DNA of 56,732 nucleotides, counting the filler, from Piptocephalis cylindrospora (lineage: Eukaryota), in NCBI GenBank assembly GCA_003614145.1. It is 4 parts of 4 records of this genome, joined end to end, with 100 filler letters (N's around TTAATTAATTAA, not from the genome) between each part and the next. Parts side by side here need not be neighbours in the genome. Positions count along the whole stretch, not along the records: positions 1 to 14,163 come from KZ987927.1; 3 more parts are not named here. One strand, written 5' to 3'. The notes under the pieces were generated by a model. It saw only the letters and a program-made list of their open reading frames with translations, searched no databases and had not been told where the DNA came from. Below, piece after piece: positions 905-44,793 of the stretch. The translations under genes were made by a program, and so were the position numbers. Positions within the stretch are counted from its first letter, which is position 1; each line of letters opens with the position of its first letter.

Positions 905-3900
905 TCAGGAAGAGCGGGAGGAAAATCGTGAAAAGGAGAAAATTCTGCTCAACAACGAATCTCTCGACATTCTCGTGGGCTTCTGGGCGCCTCTGGAGGC
1001 CTCGGCATAGTTAGCTTCACGCTTGATGATAAATGATCTCTTCTAAAGTACATAAGACGATAGGGAATTCAGAGATTATAGGCATCAAAGATAGAGAGAG
1101 AGGTGTGAGTGATTAAGAGACACAATTCATGGAGCGGCCACCATCATCTGAAAGTACGATACCTTGGTAATACCAAATGCCCTCTTCGTCTTGCCGAGTA
1201 GCTTGTTGAAGCGCTATATTCATGATGGTAGGGCATAAAGTAAGTGGATTGTTGGTTAGTTGGTAAAGTCGTTAGTATAGGCTAGAGGGTATTTATATGA
1301 AATCAACACAGCTGCTAGATGACCTACAGAAGTCTTTGTCTACATCATATCAATTATAAATGATTGACGATTTAACTAGTTAATGAGTGGATATTATACA
1401 AGGATACCAAAACCGCTGATCAGCTTACCGGAGTGGTTGGCTACATTACATTGTATGAATTCTAGACGGTTAGTAATGAATTGGGTGAGAGATCGAGAAC
1501 TACCAATTGACTTACCAATTCCATTGGCTACGTCATATTAATTATGGTTGATTGGTAATTCCAACAGTTAATGGCAAGTTAGATGAGAGCACCAAAACTG
1601 TTGACCGACTTACCGGAGTGATTGCCTATATCGTATTAACCATGGGTGGGAGGGAGCATGGATGGTTGAGGCGGATAGTGATTGGGGATTAAAAGGAAAG
1701 GGAGAATCAATGAGTGGTAAGGAGACAGTTGAAGAGAGGGGGTGCATGCAAAGTAGACAACTCCCTTCTAAAAGCCACTCTTCTTCAAATCCCCCAATAA
1801 GCCTACAATTTTCCGAGCGTTCTTGACAGCATTCTCGATAGGATCAAGAATTTTCGATAGATTGGGATCTTGATTCCTCATCCTCATGATGTCATCAGAG
1901 AACTTTGCATATTTTACCTCAGCATGTGCAGTAGCCAATGCAGATGATTCCGATGTGATTTTCGAGTATTCAATGAGCAGCTCGTTCCTTTTCTAGTCAA
2001 TGTGGAGGCGCAGGAACACCAGTATAAATGAGTGCATAATTAGGCTGTGAAAAAAAATGGGAAATCCTTCATCAGACTCCTCATCCCTCTGATTAGTCCT
2101 TATCCATTTACCTTCTCAGCTTCCCGCTTAACGGATATCTGGTCAGTTGCAGGTAATTTCCGAGCTACTTTCCACTCTTCATTGATCAGCTTATTATGTT
2201 CCCAATCAATGCGGAAGCGCGGGGACATCAGTATAGATGAGTGCATAATTAGGCTGTGAAAAATGGGGATTCCTTCACCAGACTCCTCGTCTCTCTATGA
2301 TGAGTCTATATCCACTTACATTATCGGGACGGGCTTTGGGCAAGGTCATTCCCTGATTTTGATCCTTTAAGGTGGCGCCAGCTACATTAGAGAGAGAATG
2401 ACAAAGATGCTTAGAGGATAAGGAAAAGGAGGAGGGAAGTACTCGATAAATTCTTATATATCTTACACTTTTGACTATTCGTGTTCTATCAAGTGTAAGG
2501 ATGAGAACATGATGGGAGGGTAATGGGATGAGAGGGTCCTTGACAGAGATTTGTGGAGGTGACAGAGAGATCAAGCAGTAGTTTACTCCTCAAACGTTGC
2601 CTTCCATCTATATCAAGCAAGGGGACATATCTCACGAGGTGTGTAATGTAAGTTGACTTACCGGTTTGTCCATGACGAGAGGATAATAACGATCACCAGG
2701 AAAAAGCTCATCAGGCATGCTCTGTATCAATTGTTTAAATAAACGAGATTTTTCAGAATCATTCAAGTCCTTGATCAATGGATCAGCCTTAAATGCGTTG
2801 TTTCGCTCTGTAGAGGTTGGTCTGATCTATTATTTAGAGTAGCGTCAAGGCGCATCACATGATGGATGGTGGTGGATATGTAAGTAAAAGGTGGAATTAA
2901 GAATAATGTAAGAAGAGATTGTGCGCATCTCTCCTACATCCATGAACAATCCCACATTCCCCATCGCAGCTGTATGACCTACATACAATGCGATGATCAT
3001 CTTAGAACCAAGAGCACCTACATTTTCGTTAAATATAATTTTGATAAGGCTATCTTGCTCGGCGTCCGTGAGATCTGAAATGTCTGTGATCTTCGACCTG
3101 CTGCCTGTGGGCTTGTCGATCTATTATTATTATAATTACCAAAGAAAAGTGGATATCGGTTTTTGTAGGCGGGTGAGTATTATCCACTGGTAGCGCTAAA
3201 GCGCGATGACGACGGATCTTATTATTCAAGGATCAATCTCTTTTCGTCAATGGGAAATGCCCCTTGGACGAAAGAGGTTCACCAAGTGTGAAAGCGCTTT
3301 GTGGGCATACAACCGTCTATCCATTGCCTCCGCGATAGATCATCAGCAATGGTAAATAAGAAAAGCTTACATCAAGTTTGGTTGTATCTGTACGTCCATT
3401 CACGGATCGTGGGGCCGCTTGGGGGTTTGTCTGTCTCTGGGATTCCGTCTGCAATTTATCCTAGTGGTGATGATATAGAAGCGGAGCGTCAGTAAGCAAA
3501 AATAAATAACTCTGATTGATTAGAACATGCACACAGATTTTATCAGACTACTTGATAGAGTCGTCTCTCATCCGGAGAAGAGAACTGGGCTTTTCTAGAA
3601 AGCCGCAATATGCCTTTCCCTCCACACACACTGAGAAATTCATCCTAAAAACGCAAACGCTCTTACCTTGGCGATTCGGCTCCTCCCAAATGCTTTGTCT
3701 AGCTTGAGGTTCATTTCCGAAAGCTGCTACGGAAGCAAGGAAGATGTGAATAATGTGAATCCTTTCGAAAGAAGGAAAAGTGATTGTGCGTCTCCATGTA
3801 CGCCCTCTCTTCAATCCAGGAAGAAAAGAAGCATCTACAAATCAAAGAAAATACCTTGGGGTTCCCTAAAGGCTTGGCATCATCAAGTGCTAAACGTGCC

Positions 3901-5756
3901 TTATCAAGGGACTATATGAGTGTTGACGAGCATGTGAAATTGAAAGATCAGTGAGCATTGAGCTAGCTAAAATTATATCCTGGATCAATGAACCTGATAC
4001 GAAATAGGTTATGAGGCGTCTGCGTCAACTTTACTTACCTTTCTAATGTAATCCATTGACATCTTGTAATTATTTATAGGGCATAGGAAAAGTGAATGAA
4101 AAGTATTAATTAGTGAGATTAGACAGGAGTGTCCCGTGAAGCATGTGTAAAGCCAAACCTGTGATTACCTTTGCGGCCAAGCTCGGGTCCTTCTAATTTA
4201 AAGAAACATGATTTAGAAAAGAGTGAGTGAAGGTGTTCATGAGAAAAAAACACACACACCCGATCAACTATATCGTTCTAGTGCTATCCCAATTGTTTTT
4301 GCACCACTGCCATTACCTCAATATCATCCAGTCGCCGGGTAGCCCTGGCCAAATGCTAATAAGCATATAGAAGGAATGAACAAGCTCATTGTAAGTCATC
4401 CAAGTCCCAGAAATCTTAACCATTGCCGTAACCAGAAATTACCGTATTGAATTTCTTGACATTTTGCTGCTGTTAATCGATTATAGTGGGTTGGAGAAAT
4501 GAGCTAACAATTTCAATGGGCTACTCATTCCAATAACGAATTACCTGTTCTGGGGTTACCTGTTCTGGGGTTAATGTTTCCTCTTTAACAACAGGAGTTT
4601 TCGTCTACCGTGCATTTTGGGGGGTTGTTATCCGAGAGAGTAATAGGACAATCGAGAAGGTTTCACGTCCATGACACAGGATGATGAGGGTGGTGTCGTT
4701 AGTGAATAAATTCTCCGAACCATTGATGCGTATTATATCCTTACGTTGTCGGGTTGGCGATTCTGTGTCACTTTCGTGTTGGTCTTCCTCTTTTCGGTAT
4801 TCCCGACAGTAACTTTTTCTGGTTCTTTGTTGGTAATCTATGAAGCATAGATGGGTATCGTAATAGGATGGGGTAAGTGAATGGTCACCAATCATTTCTA
4901 CCCTATACGAGATGCTGAGCATTTCAAGGCCTTTTATATATAGCATTGTGGCTTACCGTGTTTTTACCTGGAGAGGGCTTCGAATAGACATGGAAAGGCA
5001 CATTGGGATCATCTAAGGGTAGAAGACAATAAGAAGCCACACCTTATCAAAAAAAGCCTCGAATGCTGCTCAAAAAGGCTAAAAGGATCAATGAACCCAT
5101 GAAAATAAACATACCGTGACTGGCGAGTTGAGGTTCCTATACAGCATACATAAGGAGTTTTTTTAAGTAGTTAGATTTTAGTACAATCCGAACAAATATT
5201 AAACATTCATTTGGACTCCCGATCCCCTCAAAAAGAGGTATGAGGAAGAAAACTTACATATTGCTTTAGTGCTGATTCATTTATGTACAATATGCGCAAG
5301 ATACCATATATCGAGGAGGAAGATCGAGGATAACCGATCAAAAAAGGGACGAGAAAATGAGTATTTAAATGACATGACCATGGGTTTATGTGATCCAGAA
5401 AAAAATGATTCCTCAGAAGATCACATCCCAACGAAATAGAAAGCCGTGCGCTTGTACCTCATATAAAGATAAAGATCCCCTACCCGCACGCCATTAATGT
5501 GAAAAAAGGTAGTGTACTCACCTGGGTGGACTACCACTGGTTTGGCGCCTCCACCAGGGACTGAAGCTATGAACAGAGGATAGGCCGTAAGTGAACCTGC
5601 TAATTTACTTTTATCCCCTATTCACGTCATGATATTGTATCCGCACAGGTCATCTGCATGGGAAATAAAGATGTACTCACCATGTCCCGGAGAAGGGGCA
5701 ACAATAGGATGGGCGGCCAAGCAGGCCACGACGAAGATGAGAGCGGTGACCTTCAT
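905..5756 (-). CDS. Secreted protein of unknown function, ~25-26 exons with many micro-exons (~484 aa; ~514 aa with the doubtful exon 2201-2112)
   Basis: Hand-spliced model with GT..AG boundaries and no in-frame stops. Exons: 5756-5681 (signal peptide MKVTALIFVVACLAAHPIVA), 5566-5522, 5271-5258, 5136-5115, 5012-4957, 4837-4745, 4604-4545, 4469-4443, 4355-4317, 4192-4169, 4062-4039, 3911-3855, 3726-3667, 3460-3371, 3120-3022, 2826-2662, 2485-2467, 2381-2320, [2201-2112, acceptor reads TGG], 1992-1807, 1625-1614, 1527-1516, 1440-1429, 1339-1328, 1213-1163, 1042-905 (ends ...SFSRFSSRSS*). Intron phases are consistent throughout; individual exon choices remain uncertain. Confidence 0.7.
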
Positions 5757-8700
5757 GGTGACAACTGAAAGGAGACGTGTGAGGCCGGACCAGACGAGAT
5801 TGGATGATAGAAAGGGATTGATGGTTGGGATCGGGTGAGAGGTTGCTCAAAGTCAATCTCAAAAGACGATACGGAGGTGGTGCAATGGGCAGAAGCGGGG
5901 AGAAGATCAAAGGAGCGGTGCGAGACTGTATAATTTGGAGGATGGCCAGCACAGAGATGAGAAGGAGGAGGAGAAAGAGAATGGTTTAAGAGAAGGCTCG
6001 CAACAGGATGTGAGTAGGGGTGTTGGAAGCTGGAAGGGATTGCACCAGGCAATGCACAGCAGCAGGAGGGATAGGGAGAGTGAGGAGGAGGAAACGAGAG
6101 GAAGGGGAAGGTCGCGAGGGCGAGGAGGAGGAGGAGGAGGGAGATAAAGTGGGACGGGAGGGAAGATGGCGAAGGAGAAAGTGCGAGGAAGAGCGGGAAT
6201 TGGTGAAAGGAGAGAGAATGGGTATAAATAAAGAAGGGAGGAGTAGGCTTCGCAAGATATGCTTTATCGGACCTTTATACCCAGTGGATCGGTCGAGGGT
6301 TCTCGCCTCCCAAATTCGGTAGAACGAGTGACTTGAGGAAAGCAGAGATTTCCAGGGTCCCGATTACGGAGTTTGAACAAGAAGATGAAAGGTCATTCTA
6401 TCAACTCAGTCTATGCTATTAGCTTTGCACAGTGGCCGTTACATGGGAAAATCCGAGTTTGAAAAGGCACCTCCGCTCCAGAGCAGCATCGTCGTCGCTC
6501 TCCCTCTCGCCGCAGTATTCGTTGTACCTTCCGTCCTAATATTCGGAGCTTATTCAGCGTGCTTTTTTACCATGACTTTCGGAGTTTGAGACAGAAAAAT
6601 TATACAACCGACCAGCCATAATGTCCGCAGTTTACCATTGTTCTCTCTCTCCTGACCGCTTGGCACTTTATAATCTTATGGTGTCTACGGGTTTCTTCCT
6701 TCCATGATCTCTCCTCTCCGCCCTCCATCGGAGGTGTACGATAGAGAGATATGCTGATGATTGTGGAGTGGATTTATTGTGATCCATCGCTAGATCGGCG
6801 GAACTGGATGGCAGATGCCTGGTAAGGATATGTAAAGAAAGGGATGTAGGTTCTGGGAAGTGGGATAATTGAGGATGACAATAATGATGACTAGAAAAGT
6901 GGGGAAATGAGATGACTTATTTCTCAGAGAAAGACGTACCAGAGATGAAGGAAAAAATCACAGGGGGGGTTTAGAATTCTACTTCAGTTTCCATCTCAGT
7001 TTCTATCATTCTCATCTTCATCTCCATTCTAGTCTTCTCATTTTTGACCCTTCTACAGAAGGCGGTCTTCCTTTGGTTCAAGTGCCTTTCAGCATGCTTT
7101 TACGCTTCTCTTCCTCCTTCAGAGACCCAGTCAGTTGGTTCGGATAGGGAAAGGAGTAATGTCAGAAGGTTGGGCCTGAGTGCTATGGGTCTCTATCCAA
7201 CGGCCAAAATCAGCCCCTCTAATCTCAAACAACGATTAGGTAGTAAAGTACAGCTTGGTGTATCCATCAGGGATCAGAGAATTCCAAGGCGCCAAGGAGC
7301 TATCTAGATGGACTACCTATAAAACGGATTTATCCCGCCCGGGATTTGAATGGTTTATCGTGCATTCAAGCCCTAGGCAGATGTGTCCTCGCCATCTACC
7401 CCAGATTAGATGCATGAGTACTCCATACACTTCTCATGTACTCGAGTCCCAGCAATTGTGCATGAATCACTGCCTTACCGCTTGAATGATACCCGTCGCG
7501 GTCTCAGTCTTTAGCAATGATTCAGGGAATATATCGGTGAAGAGTACGACCAAACTAGGCCCAGTTCTTTTTGGCTCACTGCACTCTTCTTGAGCCATCA
7601 CATATCCATCGTATATTTTTTGGATCTTTAACTTCTTCTTAAATCCCGCCCTCTTCCCCATCCTCTTTTGTATTGGTCCTGAAGACAAGCAATAATCAAA
7701 TTATCATAAAAAACATTTCTTGTAGGAATTGAGAATGCTTTTCTTTTGACTTGTACTTTCCTGGGTACATACTGCGAATGCTCTATTTACAGGGCGCTTC
7801 TATGAATAGACATCCCTTCCATTCCTTTTTTCCTATACACATCTACCCCAGCGGAGGCCAAAGTATGACGAAAATATGATGATAATAAAATCGCTTTGCT
7901 TTCCTTCAACAAAGTAGGCTGACAGGTATCCGAGCGCAGTATTCATTTGAACGGTTAGCATGCGCATGCATGAGAACAGTGCCTAATGAACAGTAATTCT
8001 CATCAAGGTGGTGTGCATTCTGATATTTTATTTATGTAATAAAGGATGTGATTTTAACGGTTTAAAAATATTCTCTATCTCTACTACTGATAAAAGAGTG
8101 AGTTATTATTGGTATTATATGTTGAGTGTCAAAGGAGCATATGGCATGGTCACCCTGGTACCACACAGGCCGGCTTAAGGGTGGGTATTACGTTCGGATA
8201 TCCATCAGCCTACCCCACCTAGGGAAAATAGAATGGGCTCACTATTACTACAGCATATGATATGGTCAACATCTGTGTAGTTATGTAGAGATACAATATC
8301 TGCCATAAGCACTCATCCAATATGCATACACTCAACCGTTTCACTTGTCTCAGAGCATAGCCTTGGGCGTTGTGGTGATTAGAAGCGTGTGCATCATCCT
8401 GACTGCGAGGTTAGTGGCTAATTATAGTCCTTGTCCAACACAGGAATCTCCACTTTTCTCCAAGTTTAGTACGGCACACTCACCTATGCATGTTGCATTC
8501 TAGGCTTATCCAATGGTCCCATATGCACCCCAAACCTCCTACCCTCTGAACCAATCCTGCTTAATCAATCCTGGGCACCTCTTTCGTCCTCCTCCTCACT
8601 TGCCTTGCGCCTTAGTCACAGCGGGTGTGCGTACGCACGCGTTCACTCCGCTTAGACATAAAAAGGATTAGGCTTGGCAGGCCGTGCCCATCTTCCTCCC

Positions 8701-8863: not shown

Positions 8864-9008
8864 GTAGGTCATCTGCGAAGGATATACGGTGGTGCATTCT
8901 GAGCGCTAGCTTTGATTTTTTTTACCGCCCCTTGGAGGCGTGTGAGCTTGGGGCTTGAGGGTGTGCTAATCTAATCATCCCTTCTCCCCTCCCCTCGCCC
9001 CTACCTAG
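8864..9008 (+). other. Probable 5'-UTR intron of the kinase-like gene
   Basis: AG|GTAGGT donor at 8864, GCTAAT branch-like motif, pyrimidine tract, and TAG acceptor at 9008 (or 9012) just before ATG 9017. Confidence 0.5.
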
Positions 9009-9016
9009 CTAGCACT

Positions 9017-11564
9017 ATGTCCCACGTCACTCCCGAGAATTTGTGGAGCGAATCCAAGAAGACCATTGAGGTCTTAGAGCAAGCCCCTGTCCAGACCGAG
9101 TCTCTGATTCAGCTCTGCGGGGTATACCGGCGCCTAATTGCCCGAGAGCAAAGGATTGATCAGTTGGATAGCATGGCTATCGATCTGCTCATTGGACTGA
9201 CGGAACCTCTGCAGGCCCTGGTCAGTCATGGTGATCTGGTGGAATGCACCTCTTTGGACTCTCTTACGGCTGAAGGCCTTGGGATTGCTCAGGGCTTGCA
9301 AAAGTTTCTCCTCAATTACCATGCCCAGGGAGTCTTGTACCGGGCGTGCAACTGGATCAGCTCCTGGAATGAGCGGTCGGTTGAGACTTTTCTGAACCAA
9401 TTGGATGGATTTGATGACGGGGTAATCCGATACATCGCAAAGTACCTCCGCGCCCCAGCTTCCATTGACAGACCTGAGCGGGAGAGGCAGTCGAATGGAA
9501 TAGCACTGGAGGGAAAGGTGCAAGAGGAGGATAAGGTTCAAGTGGACGACCTTCCCGATGTGGGCGCCGCCCCTGGCCCCAAGTTTAACCCTCGTGATGG
9601 TAAGTGACATGAGGGATTCATCTGTATGCTGACTCTCTGCTCCACTCACCTTTCCCTCTCTCCTTCCCCCCCTCTCTCCTCCCCCCCCCTCTCTCTCTCT
9701 ATGTGCTATTTACTTTCGATAGACATGTTCACAGGGTCCCTTCTCGGAAGAAAGTTTGTCCTCCTCAACACTCCCATCTTGGGAACCTCGGACGCGGATG
9801 TGATTTGGAAGGCTAAGAATAAGAGGATTTGCACGGAGGTGGCCCTCAAGTTTTATCGGGTCGAGGAGCGCTTTGAAAAGGAGTGTCAAGCGCTCAAGGA
9901 CCTTGGAAGCGCCGAGTGCAAGCACATCCCCACCATCATCACGACGTTCAAGGGAAAGACAGAGACTGAAGGATGGGAGAGTTACAATTGCCTAGTGATG
10001 GACTTTTGTGAAGTTCCGCTATCCGAGTTTATCCATCAAACTCGAGGTCCAGAGCTGACCATCCACTACATCAAGATGGTGATTAGTGATATTTCCGATG
10101 CTCTCTTGGCGGTTCATCGGACAGGTTATGGTAAGTAAGCCGAGAGGGATTGTAGGAAGGTCTTGCCTCTCTCTAGAGTCAGCGTCTCATCTAACAACAC
10201 ATCCTTTCCTCCTCAACCACCTCCCATAGTGCATTGCAATGTTAAGCCCGAGAATGTGCTTCAAAAGAGGAATCCTGGCGCCTTGGTGCCCACATGGATG
10301 CTTGTGGACTTTGATTCGGCCACCCGGATCAACGAGCCCATGAGGATGACAGGAGGAGTCAACTATGTGGCACCAGAGGTGGCAGAAAATGAGCTCTTGG
10401 ACCAGGAGAGCACAGCATTCCCTGCTATTGATGCCTATGCACTTGGCCGGATCCTTCAGTTCATGATGACACCTATTGGATGGTGGCCCCGGGTGAAGGA
10501 TACGGATGAAGAGAAGATGCGATATCTCTCAGAGATGACGGAGATCAAGGTGAAGCAGACTGGGAGCGTGGATGAGCACACGGCTCGCGCAATCAACCAT
10601 CTAATCCACCGGGATCCCGATATGCGTCGGGACATTGAGCGGTTCCGGAACAGTACGTTCATCGGAGGAGGCAGCGATACAAAGGAGATGGATGATCTAA
10701 AGAAGGATACCGATGTGGCCAGGGCGGTGCACCAGCAGATGAAGACCATGCAGAGCAGTGTGGGTAACATTAGCCAGGGTATGTCGGACATTAAGCTTGG
10801 AGTGGATACGGCGGTGAACAAGATGGATGACATTATGGACAGTGTGCAGGCCATGCGTAACCAGGCATTGAACATGGCCGTGAATGTCGTTCCCCGCCTC
10901 TTCCTCCTTATTCCGGATCCCTCGAGGAACATCCTTAATGTGAGCGACTGGGGCCGAGACCATTTCACCTTTGTGTTCATGTGCGAGTGCGAGAACCCTC
11001 ATCCCGGGTACCATCCCGGGTACAAGCTGTCGGAGCCCAAGAAATTCCTGGTCAAGTACGGACCGCACATCCGACTGGTCCTCCAAATGACTTTAACCGC
11101 GGTGTCGGTGGCAGGAAAAGTCGCAGGCATCCCAACACTCTTCCCCCCCGGTACCATGGATGCGCTTCAGTCTATTGGAAAGAGCGGGGAGGAGCTCTTT
11201 GCTCGGGTGGAAGCGTTTAGCAAAAAGCTTGCGGTCATTGGGACCGAGTTGGACAAGGCCAGCGTAGTGGATCCGGTGATGAGTCAGACGGGTGGACAGG
11301 GGAAAAAGGCCTATGGTACTTTTAGTGAGAAGGATATGCGCGCCATTGAAGGTAAGGCTTTTGCGGATATGTGAGACGTGTGGCCCATACTCATGATCCC
11401 CTTTCCTTCTTCCCCCCTCAGCTTACCTTGAGAGCAAGGACCCGAGCCGGAGTCTTGGAAACCTTCGTCGGTGCACGCATCGAAAGTCCGGGGCTGTGAG
11501 ATGGCTGTGTGATGACCATCTGGATAGTGGCGAATATCTTGTGGCGAATACCGAGGAGGAGTAA
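9017..11564 (+). CDS. Protein kinase-like (probable pseudokinase) with helical N-terminal domain, coiled coil and conserved C-terminal domain
   Basis: Exons 9017-9599, 9723-10130, 10230-11351, 11422-11564. Kinase motifs: VALK, HCNVKPEN, DFD, YVAPE, DAYALG. C-terminal motifs: VPRLFLLIP, FMCEC, HPGYKL..P..F...YGP, LGNLRR...G.VRWLC..H. Confidence 0.85.
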
Positions 11565-21573: not shown

Positions 21574-22119
21574 CTAGTGCTTGGAATTCGCCACGTAGCT
21601 GAAAGAGGTAGGCATGGGAAGGAAATGACAAAGTATTTAGGATGTATCTAAATCCTTTTCTGTGAAATCTGGTAAATTACCTTGTACTAGTAATGCGCTC
21701 AAGAAAAATCAGGTCTAGAGCGCCTCTAGTGTTTGGAATTCGCCACGTAGCTGGAAGTGGTAGACGTCGGAAGAAGATATAGGAAAACTCCGAGGATGTA
21801 TCTGAATCCTTTTCTGTGAAACCTGGTAAATTGGTTGTACTAGTAATGCGCTCAAGAAAAATCAGGTCTAGAGCGCCTCTAGTGTTTGGAATTCGCCACG
21901 TAGCTGGAAGTGGTAGACGTCGGAAGAAGATATAGGAAAACTCCGAGGATGTATCTGAATCCTTTTCTGTGAAACCTGGTAAATTGGTTGTACTAGTAAT
22001 GCGCTCAAGAAAAATCAGGTCTAGAGCGCCTCTAGTGTTTGGAATTCGCCACGTAGCTGGAAGTGGTAGACGTCGGAAGAAGATATAGGAAAACTCCGAG
22101 GATGTATCTGAATCCTTTT
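21574..22119. repeat. 153-bp tandem repeat, ~3.6 copies
   Basis: Units start at 21574 (diverged), 21726, 21879 and 22032 (CTAGTG[T/C]TTGGAATTCGCCACGTAGCTG...). The last three look identical over their shared length. Confidence 0.95.
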
Positions 22120-43995: not shown

Positions 43996-44100
43996 GTGAG
44001 TGAGTGAGCGAGTGAGTGAGTGAGCAGTGAGTGAGTGAGTAGTGAGTGAGTGAGTGAGTAGTAAGTGAGCAGTGGGTGAGTAGTGAGTGAGTGAGTGTGA
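43996..44100. repeat. (GTGA)n imperfect microsatellite
   Basis: Directly visible. Confidence 0.9.
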
Positions 44101-44793
44101 ATGTGAATAGACTGGATGGCGGTGTGAGGTGAGCAGAGGAGAGGCATTGAAGGGTGGTGGGATATGGAAAAGGGGCCTAGTGGGATCGGCCTTCACTTTC
44201 TATGTGGAGGGCAAGTGTAGATTACGCTTCATTCCTCTGGTTTCTATTCTATTATTCTTTCTGCTCATAGATTTCCTGGCAGATCTCTGCCTTTATGATC
44301 CATTGCGCTGCTTATGTGATTAGGTCAGGATAGGCAAAAGGATCTTGGTGGAGGAGAGACACGAGCTGGTAGGATTCAAGCGAGGAGACGTATGGATCGG
44401 TAGACAAGGATGTTTTGAGGGAGAGGGGGGAGGGACCCTTGTGTCTCGCACATAGGAGCTGTAGCGGACAAGGCTTACGCCATCCAGCGCACTAGCTTCG
44501 AAGATGAGAGGGAAATAAATGAGGTTCGGCTTGGATAGGACCACTGCTGAACAAGAGCCGCCATTTGCACACTATATATACTGTGTATGAGGGAGGACAG
44601 CCCCAAGCGGGATGAGGCGGTGGGTGTTTAAACTCACCCTAGCGAACTCATAGACGGTGATTTGGTCCTCCGCCAAAGCGCTAAGGGTAAGGGTGAGAGC
44701 CCTCCCCCCACAAGGAAAGACGCTGGTCATCTTCTATACCCCATCCCATCTCGCCCTCTCCATCCCATTCTACCCTGACTCCTCCCTCCCAAC

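Follow-up and report, generated by a model that had tools for sequence, protein, structure and literature searches.

Intron gain by repeat expansion has been described in the fungus Cryptococcus neoformans (Sharpton et al. 2008, PMC2395259). In its gene CNN00420, tandem multiplication of a ~100-nt unit, exon sequence together with intron, gave rise to new introns and new exons; the copies are identical, supported by ESTs, and polymorphic among strains. Runs of frame-preserving microexons also occur in the nank genes of the fungus Tuber, where single-codon exons are alternatively spliced in an expanded family of intracellular, NLR-like proteins (a 2012 study, as cited in PMC4986451). In Coprinopsis cinerea, ~9% of genes have internal microexons of 15 nt or less, lying between short introns. 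Most of these would break the reading frame if omitted (835 of 1,165 genes), and the passages on them describe no tandem arrays of homologous microexons (PMC12230235). In schistosome micro-exon genes (MEGs), finally, very small exons make up most of the coding sequence, the introns measure 0.1–5 kb, and alternative splicing is proven (bioRxiv 10.1101/2023.06.21.545858; PMC4350168).

Piptocephalis cylindrospora, a member of the Zoopagomycota, is a biotrophic mycoparasite (PMC6784888). Our literature search, which covered papers outside subscription, found none on microexons in Zoopagomycota and nothing on the gene discussed here. This gene lies in a stretch of 56,732 nt, filler included (‘the window’), in which an earlier note had singled out four consecutive 12-nt exons. 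Tandem duplication of a ~90-nt unit has produced four copies, and we think it probable that the exons are all spliced in, adding a probably unstructured stretch of 16 residues near the C-terminus. The duplication mechanism itself is already known, being of the CNN00420 type. Unlike those of CNN00420, the Piptocephalis copies are old (only ~60–70% alike), their exons are 12 nt long and diverged, and they are known here from DNA alone.

The predicted gene and its product

The four microexons are exons 21–24 of a predicted gene of 26 exons (Table 1), a setting that escaped the earlier note: the array makes up only a small part of this mostly phase-0 gene with its signal-peptide-like start. All 25 introns of our model are GT–AG and 75–250 nt long, a density of 16 per kb of coding sequence, and 21 of them are in phase 0, a count that is not fully independent because donors were chosen by eye and acceptors partly by frame. 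Nineteen of the 24 internal exons are symmetric and 10 of the 24 are no longer than 27 nt; exons of up to 36 nt hold 11% of the coding sequence, and those of up to 81 nt hold 48%. A frame-blind rule, which takes the AG after the longest AG-free gap, recovers the model acceptor in 18 of the 25 introns, and the AG-free zone before model acceptors has a median of 58 nt vs 8.5 nt for 244 other AGs. Branch-like motifs in these introns mostly lie 15–64 nt from the acceptor. By eye, introns throughout the window (e.g. at 9600 and 52570, plus strand) appear to have such motifs ~20–75 nt before the acceptor, and long, pyrimidine-rich tracts free of AG.

Table 1. Features of the predicted gene, in window coordinates
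Feature	Position	Strand	Description	Evidence or remark
Predicted gene	5756-905	minus	26 exons, 523 codons; orphan; signal-peptide-like N-terminus	open frame without stop
Exon 1	5681-5756	minus	carries the start codon and a hydrophobic leader, a predicted signal peptide	hydropathy
Second tandem intron+exon duplication	1918-2319	minus	~209-nt unit, same gene	intron 99/116, exon 34/54
Exon 20	1807-1992	minus	upstream neighbour of the array; phase 0 at both ends; predicted helical	
Intron 20	1626-1806	minus	181 nt; only last ~25 nt in repeated unit	133-nt AG-free zone before acceptor
Microexon 1 (exon 21)	1614-1625	minus	AITP	splice rank 8 of 10,991
Intron 21	1528-1613	minus	86 nt; chimeric	resembles intron 24 in its 5' part and intron 20 in its 3' part
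Microexon 2 (exon 22)	1516-1527	minus	PMEL; most diverged	5/12 to each other copy; splice rank 24
Intron 22	1441-1515	minus	75 nt; TACTAAC and competing upstream AG	alternative exon start 1461, into stop
Microexon 3 (exon 23)	1429-1440	minus	PTTP	10/12 identical to microexon 1; splice rank 9
Intron 23	1340-1428	minus	89 nt; competing upstream AG	68% identical to intron 21; alternative exon start 1375, into stop
Microexon 4 (exon 24)	1328-1339	minus	TKTS	weakest splice score; rank 222
Intron 24	1214-1327	minus	114 nt; only first ~45 nt in repeated unit	
Exon 25	1163-1213	minus	basic; predicted helix	
Exon 26 (candidate)	905-1042	minus	candidate last exon, own model only	103-nt AG-free zone before acceptor; weak preceding donor

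Donors and acceptors were listed by hand before comparison with P0004, a hypothetical protein of 506 residues from Piptocephalis cylindrospora, to part of which the exon at 1992-1807 is 100% identical. This public model contains the same four microexons and agrees with ours in 21 of 25 introns, including all of those around the microexons; as an annotation of this same DNA it counts as another prediction, and not as RNA evidence. The annotation passage of the species' genome paper names the JGI pipeline alone (PMC6784888), and a term search of the supplements of PMC8042348 turned up no figures on introns or annotation in this species. In the public model exon 25 reads on, without splicing, to a stop at 1127. 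We rejected that model's 25-nt intron at 2319-2295 as implausibly short, and prefer an acceptor at 2189. Two other places allow more than one splice site: exon 15 ends (2983-3021, minus strand) in two GTAGGT donors 39 nt apart, both in phase 0, and at the end of exon 7 (4541-4573, minus strand) a perfect 15-nt tandem repeat duplicates the donor. The sites that the exon 7 repeat offers, as donor or as acceptor, are 15 nt apart and keep the frame; the public model uses it as an acceptor.

G+C content is 43% in the first 8 kb of the window vs 52% in the rest, and among the neighbouring genes are some whose frames run unbroken for 1051, 875, 813 and 656 codons. Elsewhere in the window, three consecutive frames joined by two introns (8975-11374, plus strand) resemble, by eye, a helical domain at the N-terminus, a protein kinase domain, and a C-terminal domain of unknown type. 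A 153-nt tandem repeat at 21574-22119 (3.6 copies, 94% identical) has an open frame on the plus strand; a 37-nt inverted repeat (439-475 and 545-581, 70%) lies within 439-767; and a frame for a ribosomal protein falls into the same 90% cluster as a protein of Piptocephalis tieghemiana.

The product is predicted to begin with a hydrophobic leader, a call made by hydropathy; the best 15-residue window, residues 5–19, averages 2.46. An AlphaFold2 model built without an alignment places three helices, with pLDDT 65–90, at residues 105–195, a stretch encoded by seven small exons. Such a bundle, if correctly modelled, fits a stably spliced product. Many three-helix bundles match residues 104–195 in a fold search, which makes this a generic bundle; assignment to a fold family was rejected, as the best match (Z 11.7, rmsd 1.8, 88 residues aligned) falls under the bar of ~13 used for helical bundles. 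Homologue searches, one with 7,994 candidates scored and another over 1.84 billion representatives, matched P0004 alone. Residues 1–75 have no homologue among shorter proteins, and metagenome contigs contained neither a match to the leader nor a related locus. P0004 has no Pfam family above cut-off, DUF5788 (E 0.005) and ArlX (E 6.6) being rejected as both under it; the Atlas search gave no feature match, and its structure rows were under the bar.

In several respects this gene resembles the schistosome MEGs: it comes from a parasite, it has a lineage-restricted product with a signal-peptide-like start, and it combines many short, symmetric exons with exon duplication and hints of fast coding change (compare bioRxiv 10.1101/2023.06.21.545858 and PMC4350168 for the MEGs). 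The symmetry, as counted above in the predicted model, is shared with them. It differs in that only a small part of its coding sequence is in tiny exons, in that its introns are short (75–89 nt within the array), and in the size of its product, ~520 residues. By anatomy it would be a partial MEG, lacking two of the defining features, and we claim no homology. Nor does it closely match Tuber nank: its product is a predicted secreted orphan in which Pfam gives neither NACHT nor ankyrin above cut-off, and its microexons encode four residues rather than one. Going by this anatomy, its product may be a secreted protein peculiar to this lineage of mycoparasites, acting at the cell surface or in interaction with the host, and the gene would grow and be remodelled by such exon duplications.

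Origin and conservation of the four-microexon array

Each unit of the array consists of TAG, 12 nt, and a GT donor (in order GTAAGT, GTAAGT, GTAAGC and GTAGGT), and the coordinates, flanks and translations given by the earlier note are exact. The units are spaced 98, 87 and 101 nt apart, in agreement with the 87–101 bp it reported. Pro, Thr or Ser make up 10 of the 16 encoded residues, all of which descend from one exon. Splice matrices trained on the gene's other 20 introns place the units among the AG-N(3-30)-GT candidates of the window at the ranks shown in Table 1. The AG-free zones before the four acceptors measure 133, 68, 19 and 34 nt, vs the median of 8.5 nt for the 244 other AGs (p 0.0015). 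When the window was shuffled 100 times with its dinucleotides preserved, no shuffle brought together, within 350 nt, four YAG-N(k)-GTRRG units of equal length; the best clusters had 2–3 units. The only other real cluster of this kind in the window, larger than the array, is a GTGA microsatellite at 44028-44111. The array is not a chance product. Tandem Repeats Finder did not report it.

That the array arose by tandem duplication of intron plus exon is borne out by its introns, which are chimeric because the duplicated unit spans the end of one intron, the exon, and the start of the next. The 5' part of intron 21 matches those of introns 22, 23 and 24 at 21, 23 and 23 of 39 positions, vs 3–14 of 39 for the gene's other 21 introns; none of 189 control pairs reaches 21. 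Its 3' part matches that of intron 20 at 17 of 27 positions and that of intron 23 at 19 of 27, vs 3–10 of 27 for the gene's other 22 introns; among 189 control pairs, a single one attains 17. For the 3' end of intron 22, a match requires gaps. At the edges of the array, the 5' end of intron 20 (10/39) and the 3' end of intron 24 (8/27) do not match intron 21. The breakpoints of homology thus lie inside the outer introns 20 and 24, and adjacent units are homologous across exon and intron.

Aligned as wholes, the introns resemble each other to varying degrees, and the general likeness claimed at the outset holds only in part. It is strong for introns 21 and 23 (52/77, z 9.0) and moderate for 21/22 (41/65, z 3.7) and 21/24 (49/77, z 4.3), but weak or absent for 22/23 (z 2.8), 23/24 (z 1.9) and 22/24 (z 0.4). 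Likewise, both intron motifs quoted in support are real, but each occurs in only two of the four units: ACCAAAAC at 1406 and 1591, and the second at 1340 and 1528. A blastn self-comparison matches 1336-1446 with 1524-1631 (70% over 111 nt, E 3e-8), and the identity of microexons 1 and 3 (those beginning at 1625 and 1440) has p ~8e-5. As an order of events, copying of a two-unit block agrees with the data only in part: introns 21/23 and exons 1/3 conform to it, whereas exons 2/4 (5/12) and introns 22/24 do not. An amplification chimera or assembly artefact was rejected, since the copies are only ~60–70% alike.

Across the four copies, 7 of the 9 columns of the splice core are invariant, vs 7 of 39 in the flanking intron (Fisher p 0.001) and 3 of the 12 exon columns, so that the splice sites seem to have been retained, and the codons to be free. 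Conservation of the splice signals, one part of the earlier claim, is upheld by this excess over the flanks. Divergence of exon content is only partly so: microexon 2 has indeed drifted far, but microexons 1 and 3 remain close. Selection on that content finds no backing, exon columns being as invariant as intron columns (p 0.68). Nor do the pooled values for the microexons (pN 0.51 vs pS 0.31), from just 16 codons and non-independent pairs, amount to a demonstration of positive selection. The length of 12 nt is constant as claimed, but this is weak evidence for selection because few intron indels separate the copies: alignments with intron 21 contain 1–4 gaps per pair.

How the array is probably spliced

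We propose that unequal crossing-over or slippage produced the copies. Each new intron of 75–89 nt would then have had its own donor, branch-like motif and acceptor, and would be recognized across the intron, the established model for this kind of layout (discussed in PMC6142364). The size of the exons would be irrelevant because each short intron is recognized across itself, and the copies would have been tolerated because phase 0 and a length of 12 nt kept the frame. Selection would hold the splice sites while the four codons between them drift. Constitutive inclusion of all four microexons is accordingly a reading we hold with moderate confidence, and the best of those considered. It is favored because the array introns are short and have their own signals, because exon skipping is rare in fungi (0.5% of alternative events in Coprinopsis, PMC12230235; see also PMC6142364), because skipping of all four microexons needs an intron of 593 nt vs a maximum of 250 nt in the gene, and because retention of any of introns 20–24 leads to a stop within 3–24 codons. 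The same short-intron architecture and fungal norms speak against the variable-length linker envisaged by the earlier note. The array residues (464–478) are modelled as coil between helices at 443–463 and 479–491, as a linker should be, but at pLDDT below 50 this proves little. Three sequencing runs guessed to be RNA have unspliced contigs at 1893-2717 (two runs) and 600-767 (one run); these have adapter-like tails and strand-switch joints, and we treat them as amplified DNA. Contigs from the four runs mapped leave 1321-1645 uncovered, which weighs neither for nor against splicing there. At 600-767 the contigs of run X6 reach a depth of ~1,400–3,200, from a repeated element or amplification bias.

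Two other readings accept the array as part of the messenger but differ in how it is used. The microexons could form a cassette array, skipped in combinations to give up to 16 in-frame isoforms, with other symmetric exons behaving likewise and a secreted protein diversified at the host interface. All four are in phase 0 and 12 nt long, every one of the 16 combinations is in frame, most internal exons of the gene are symmetric (19/24), and to skip one microexon takes an intron of just 173–279 nt, mostly inside the gene's range. Alternative splicing of the codon-sized microexons of Tuber nank (as cited in PMC4986451), a regulated microexon in Trichoderma Xlr2 (PMC11121469), and the parasitic lifestyle with an orphan, predicted secreted product all point the same way. 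Symmetry, however, is also what lets a duplicated exon survive, and skipping is not needed to explain it; fungal exon skipping is rare, as noted; the introns are short, unlike those of MEGs; and skipping among the seven small exons would break the predicted three-helix bundle. We regard this as unlikely. The array could instead be a switch between acceptors, or between splicing and retention, in which AGs within introns 22 and 23 are often used, transcripts stop in the array and lose the basic C-terminal tail, and microexons 3 and 4 are only sometimes 12 nt long. It is the AGs at 1461 and 1375 that come after the longest stretches free of AG, and the frame-blind rule therefore prefers them for microexons 3 and 4; both are in frame and run into the downstream TAG as a stop, ending the protein; and the acceptor at 1375 outscores that at 1339 (5.8 vs 3.1). 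Retention and alternative 3' sites, moreover, account for 67.5% and 23.5% of alternative events in Coprinopsis (PMC12230235). But these AGs are only a few bases past the best branch-like motifs (TACTAAC and CATTAAC), vs mostly 15–64 nt elsewhere in the gene, a distance that would argue against their use, and the units have kept the distal TAG, their length of 12 nt, and a frame that stays open through exon 25. This reading, too, seems to us improbable.

More radically, the units might not be exons at all, but decayed, unused remnants of duplicated splice sites within one long intron, or the gene might be a pseudogene. No homologue was found in our searches, and the exon content evolves like intron. 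Such remnants would hardly keep splice cores conserved above their flanks in four copies, or 16 codons free of stops; the resulting intron of 593 nt would be more than twice the gene's longest; and a frame of 523 codons stays open across 26 exons. We consider this very unlikely. Introner-like elements, inserted repeatedly into one pre-existing exon and cutting it into 12-nt pieces, would account for the mutual resemblance of the array introns, and for little else: homology stops within introns 20 and 24 rather than at intron boundaries, the exons are homologous too (10/12, p ~8e-5), independent insertions leave the equal 12-nt spacing unexplained, and blastn shows no further copy in the window. 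We give this explanation almost no credence.

Other duplications in the gene, and what the array means

The gene contains a second tandem duplication of intron plus exon (Table 1). Here the exon has diverged further than the intron (63% identical over the first 54 exon bases vs 85% for the intron, p 0.002; exon pN 0.39, pS 0.30), for which diversifying selection or intron conversion would both do. The homologous acceptor has been lost in the first copy, and an AAG lying 12 nt beyond has probably taken its place. Where the second half of exon 20 begins (1807-1917, minus strand) there is a donor-like site, the homologue of the intron 19 donor; this half weakly resembles intron 18 (z 4.1, 1/500 shuffles) and hardly resembles intron 19 (z 1–2), and is possibly an exonized third copy.

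The leader, too, appears to exist in a second version. Contigs 3–6 of run X2 form a bubble at 5492-5897, in which the second copy, ~6.5% diverged, spans the end of the 5' UTR, the leader exon, intron 1 and exon 2; the depth of the shared, flanking contigs is the sum of both branches. At 5524-5815 the run has two contigs, one like the window and the other with 19 differences and a 3-nt gap, at a depth of 4.3, which falls under the depth of 5 below which contigs are flagged as error-prone. Changes in exon 1 are 6.5 synonymous vs 4.5 non-synonymous. The second copy would be either a paralogue or an allele. A larger proposal is that Piptocephalis possesses an independent MEG-like system: a secreted family with a common leader cassette, phase-0 modules, tandem exon duplication, exons changing faster than introns, and combinatorial splicing in host attack. 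We consider this distinctly unlikely.

Exon and intron gain has left a clean fossil in this array, with breakpoints that can be read from its chimeric introns, in a place where several neighboring genes keep long, unbroken frames. If skipping should prove true, it would be a fungal counterpart of the flatworm MEGs; otherwise, it neatly illustrates a mechanism already known. Of greater interest as a lead is the gene itself, a phase-0, exon-rich, predicted secreted gene in a mycoparasite. Orphans of this type, here in an AT-richer region, are easily mis-annotated and are unstudied in Zoopagomycota, and this one is a candidate for the secretion of a biotrophic mycoparasite.
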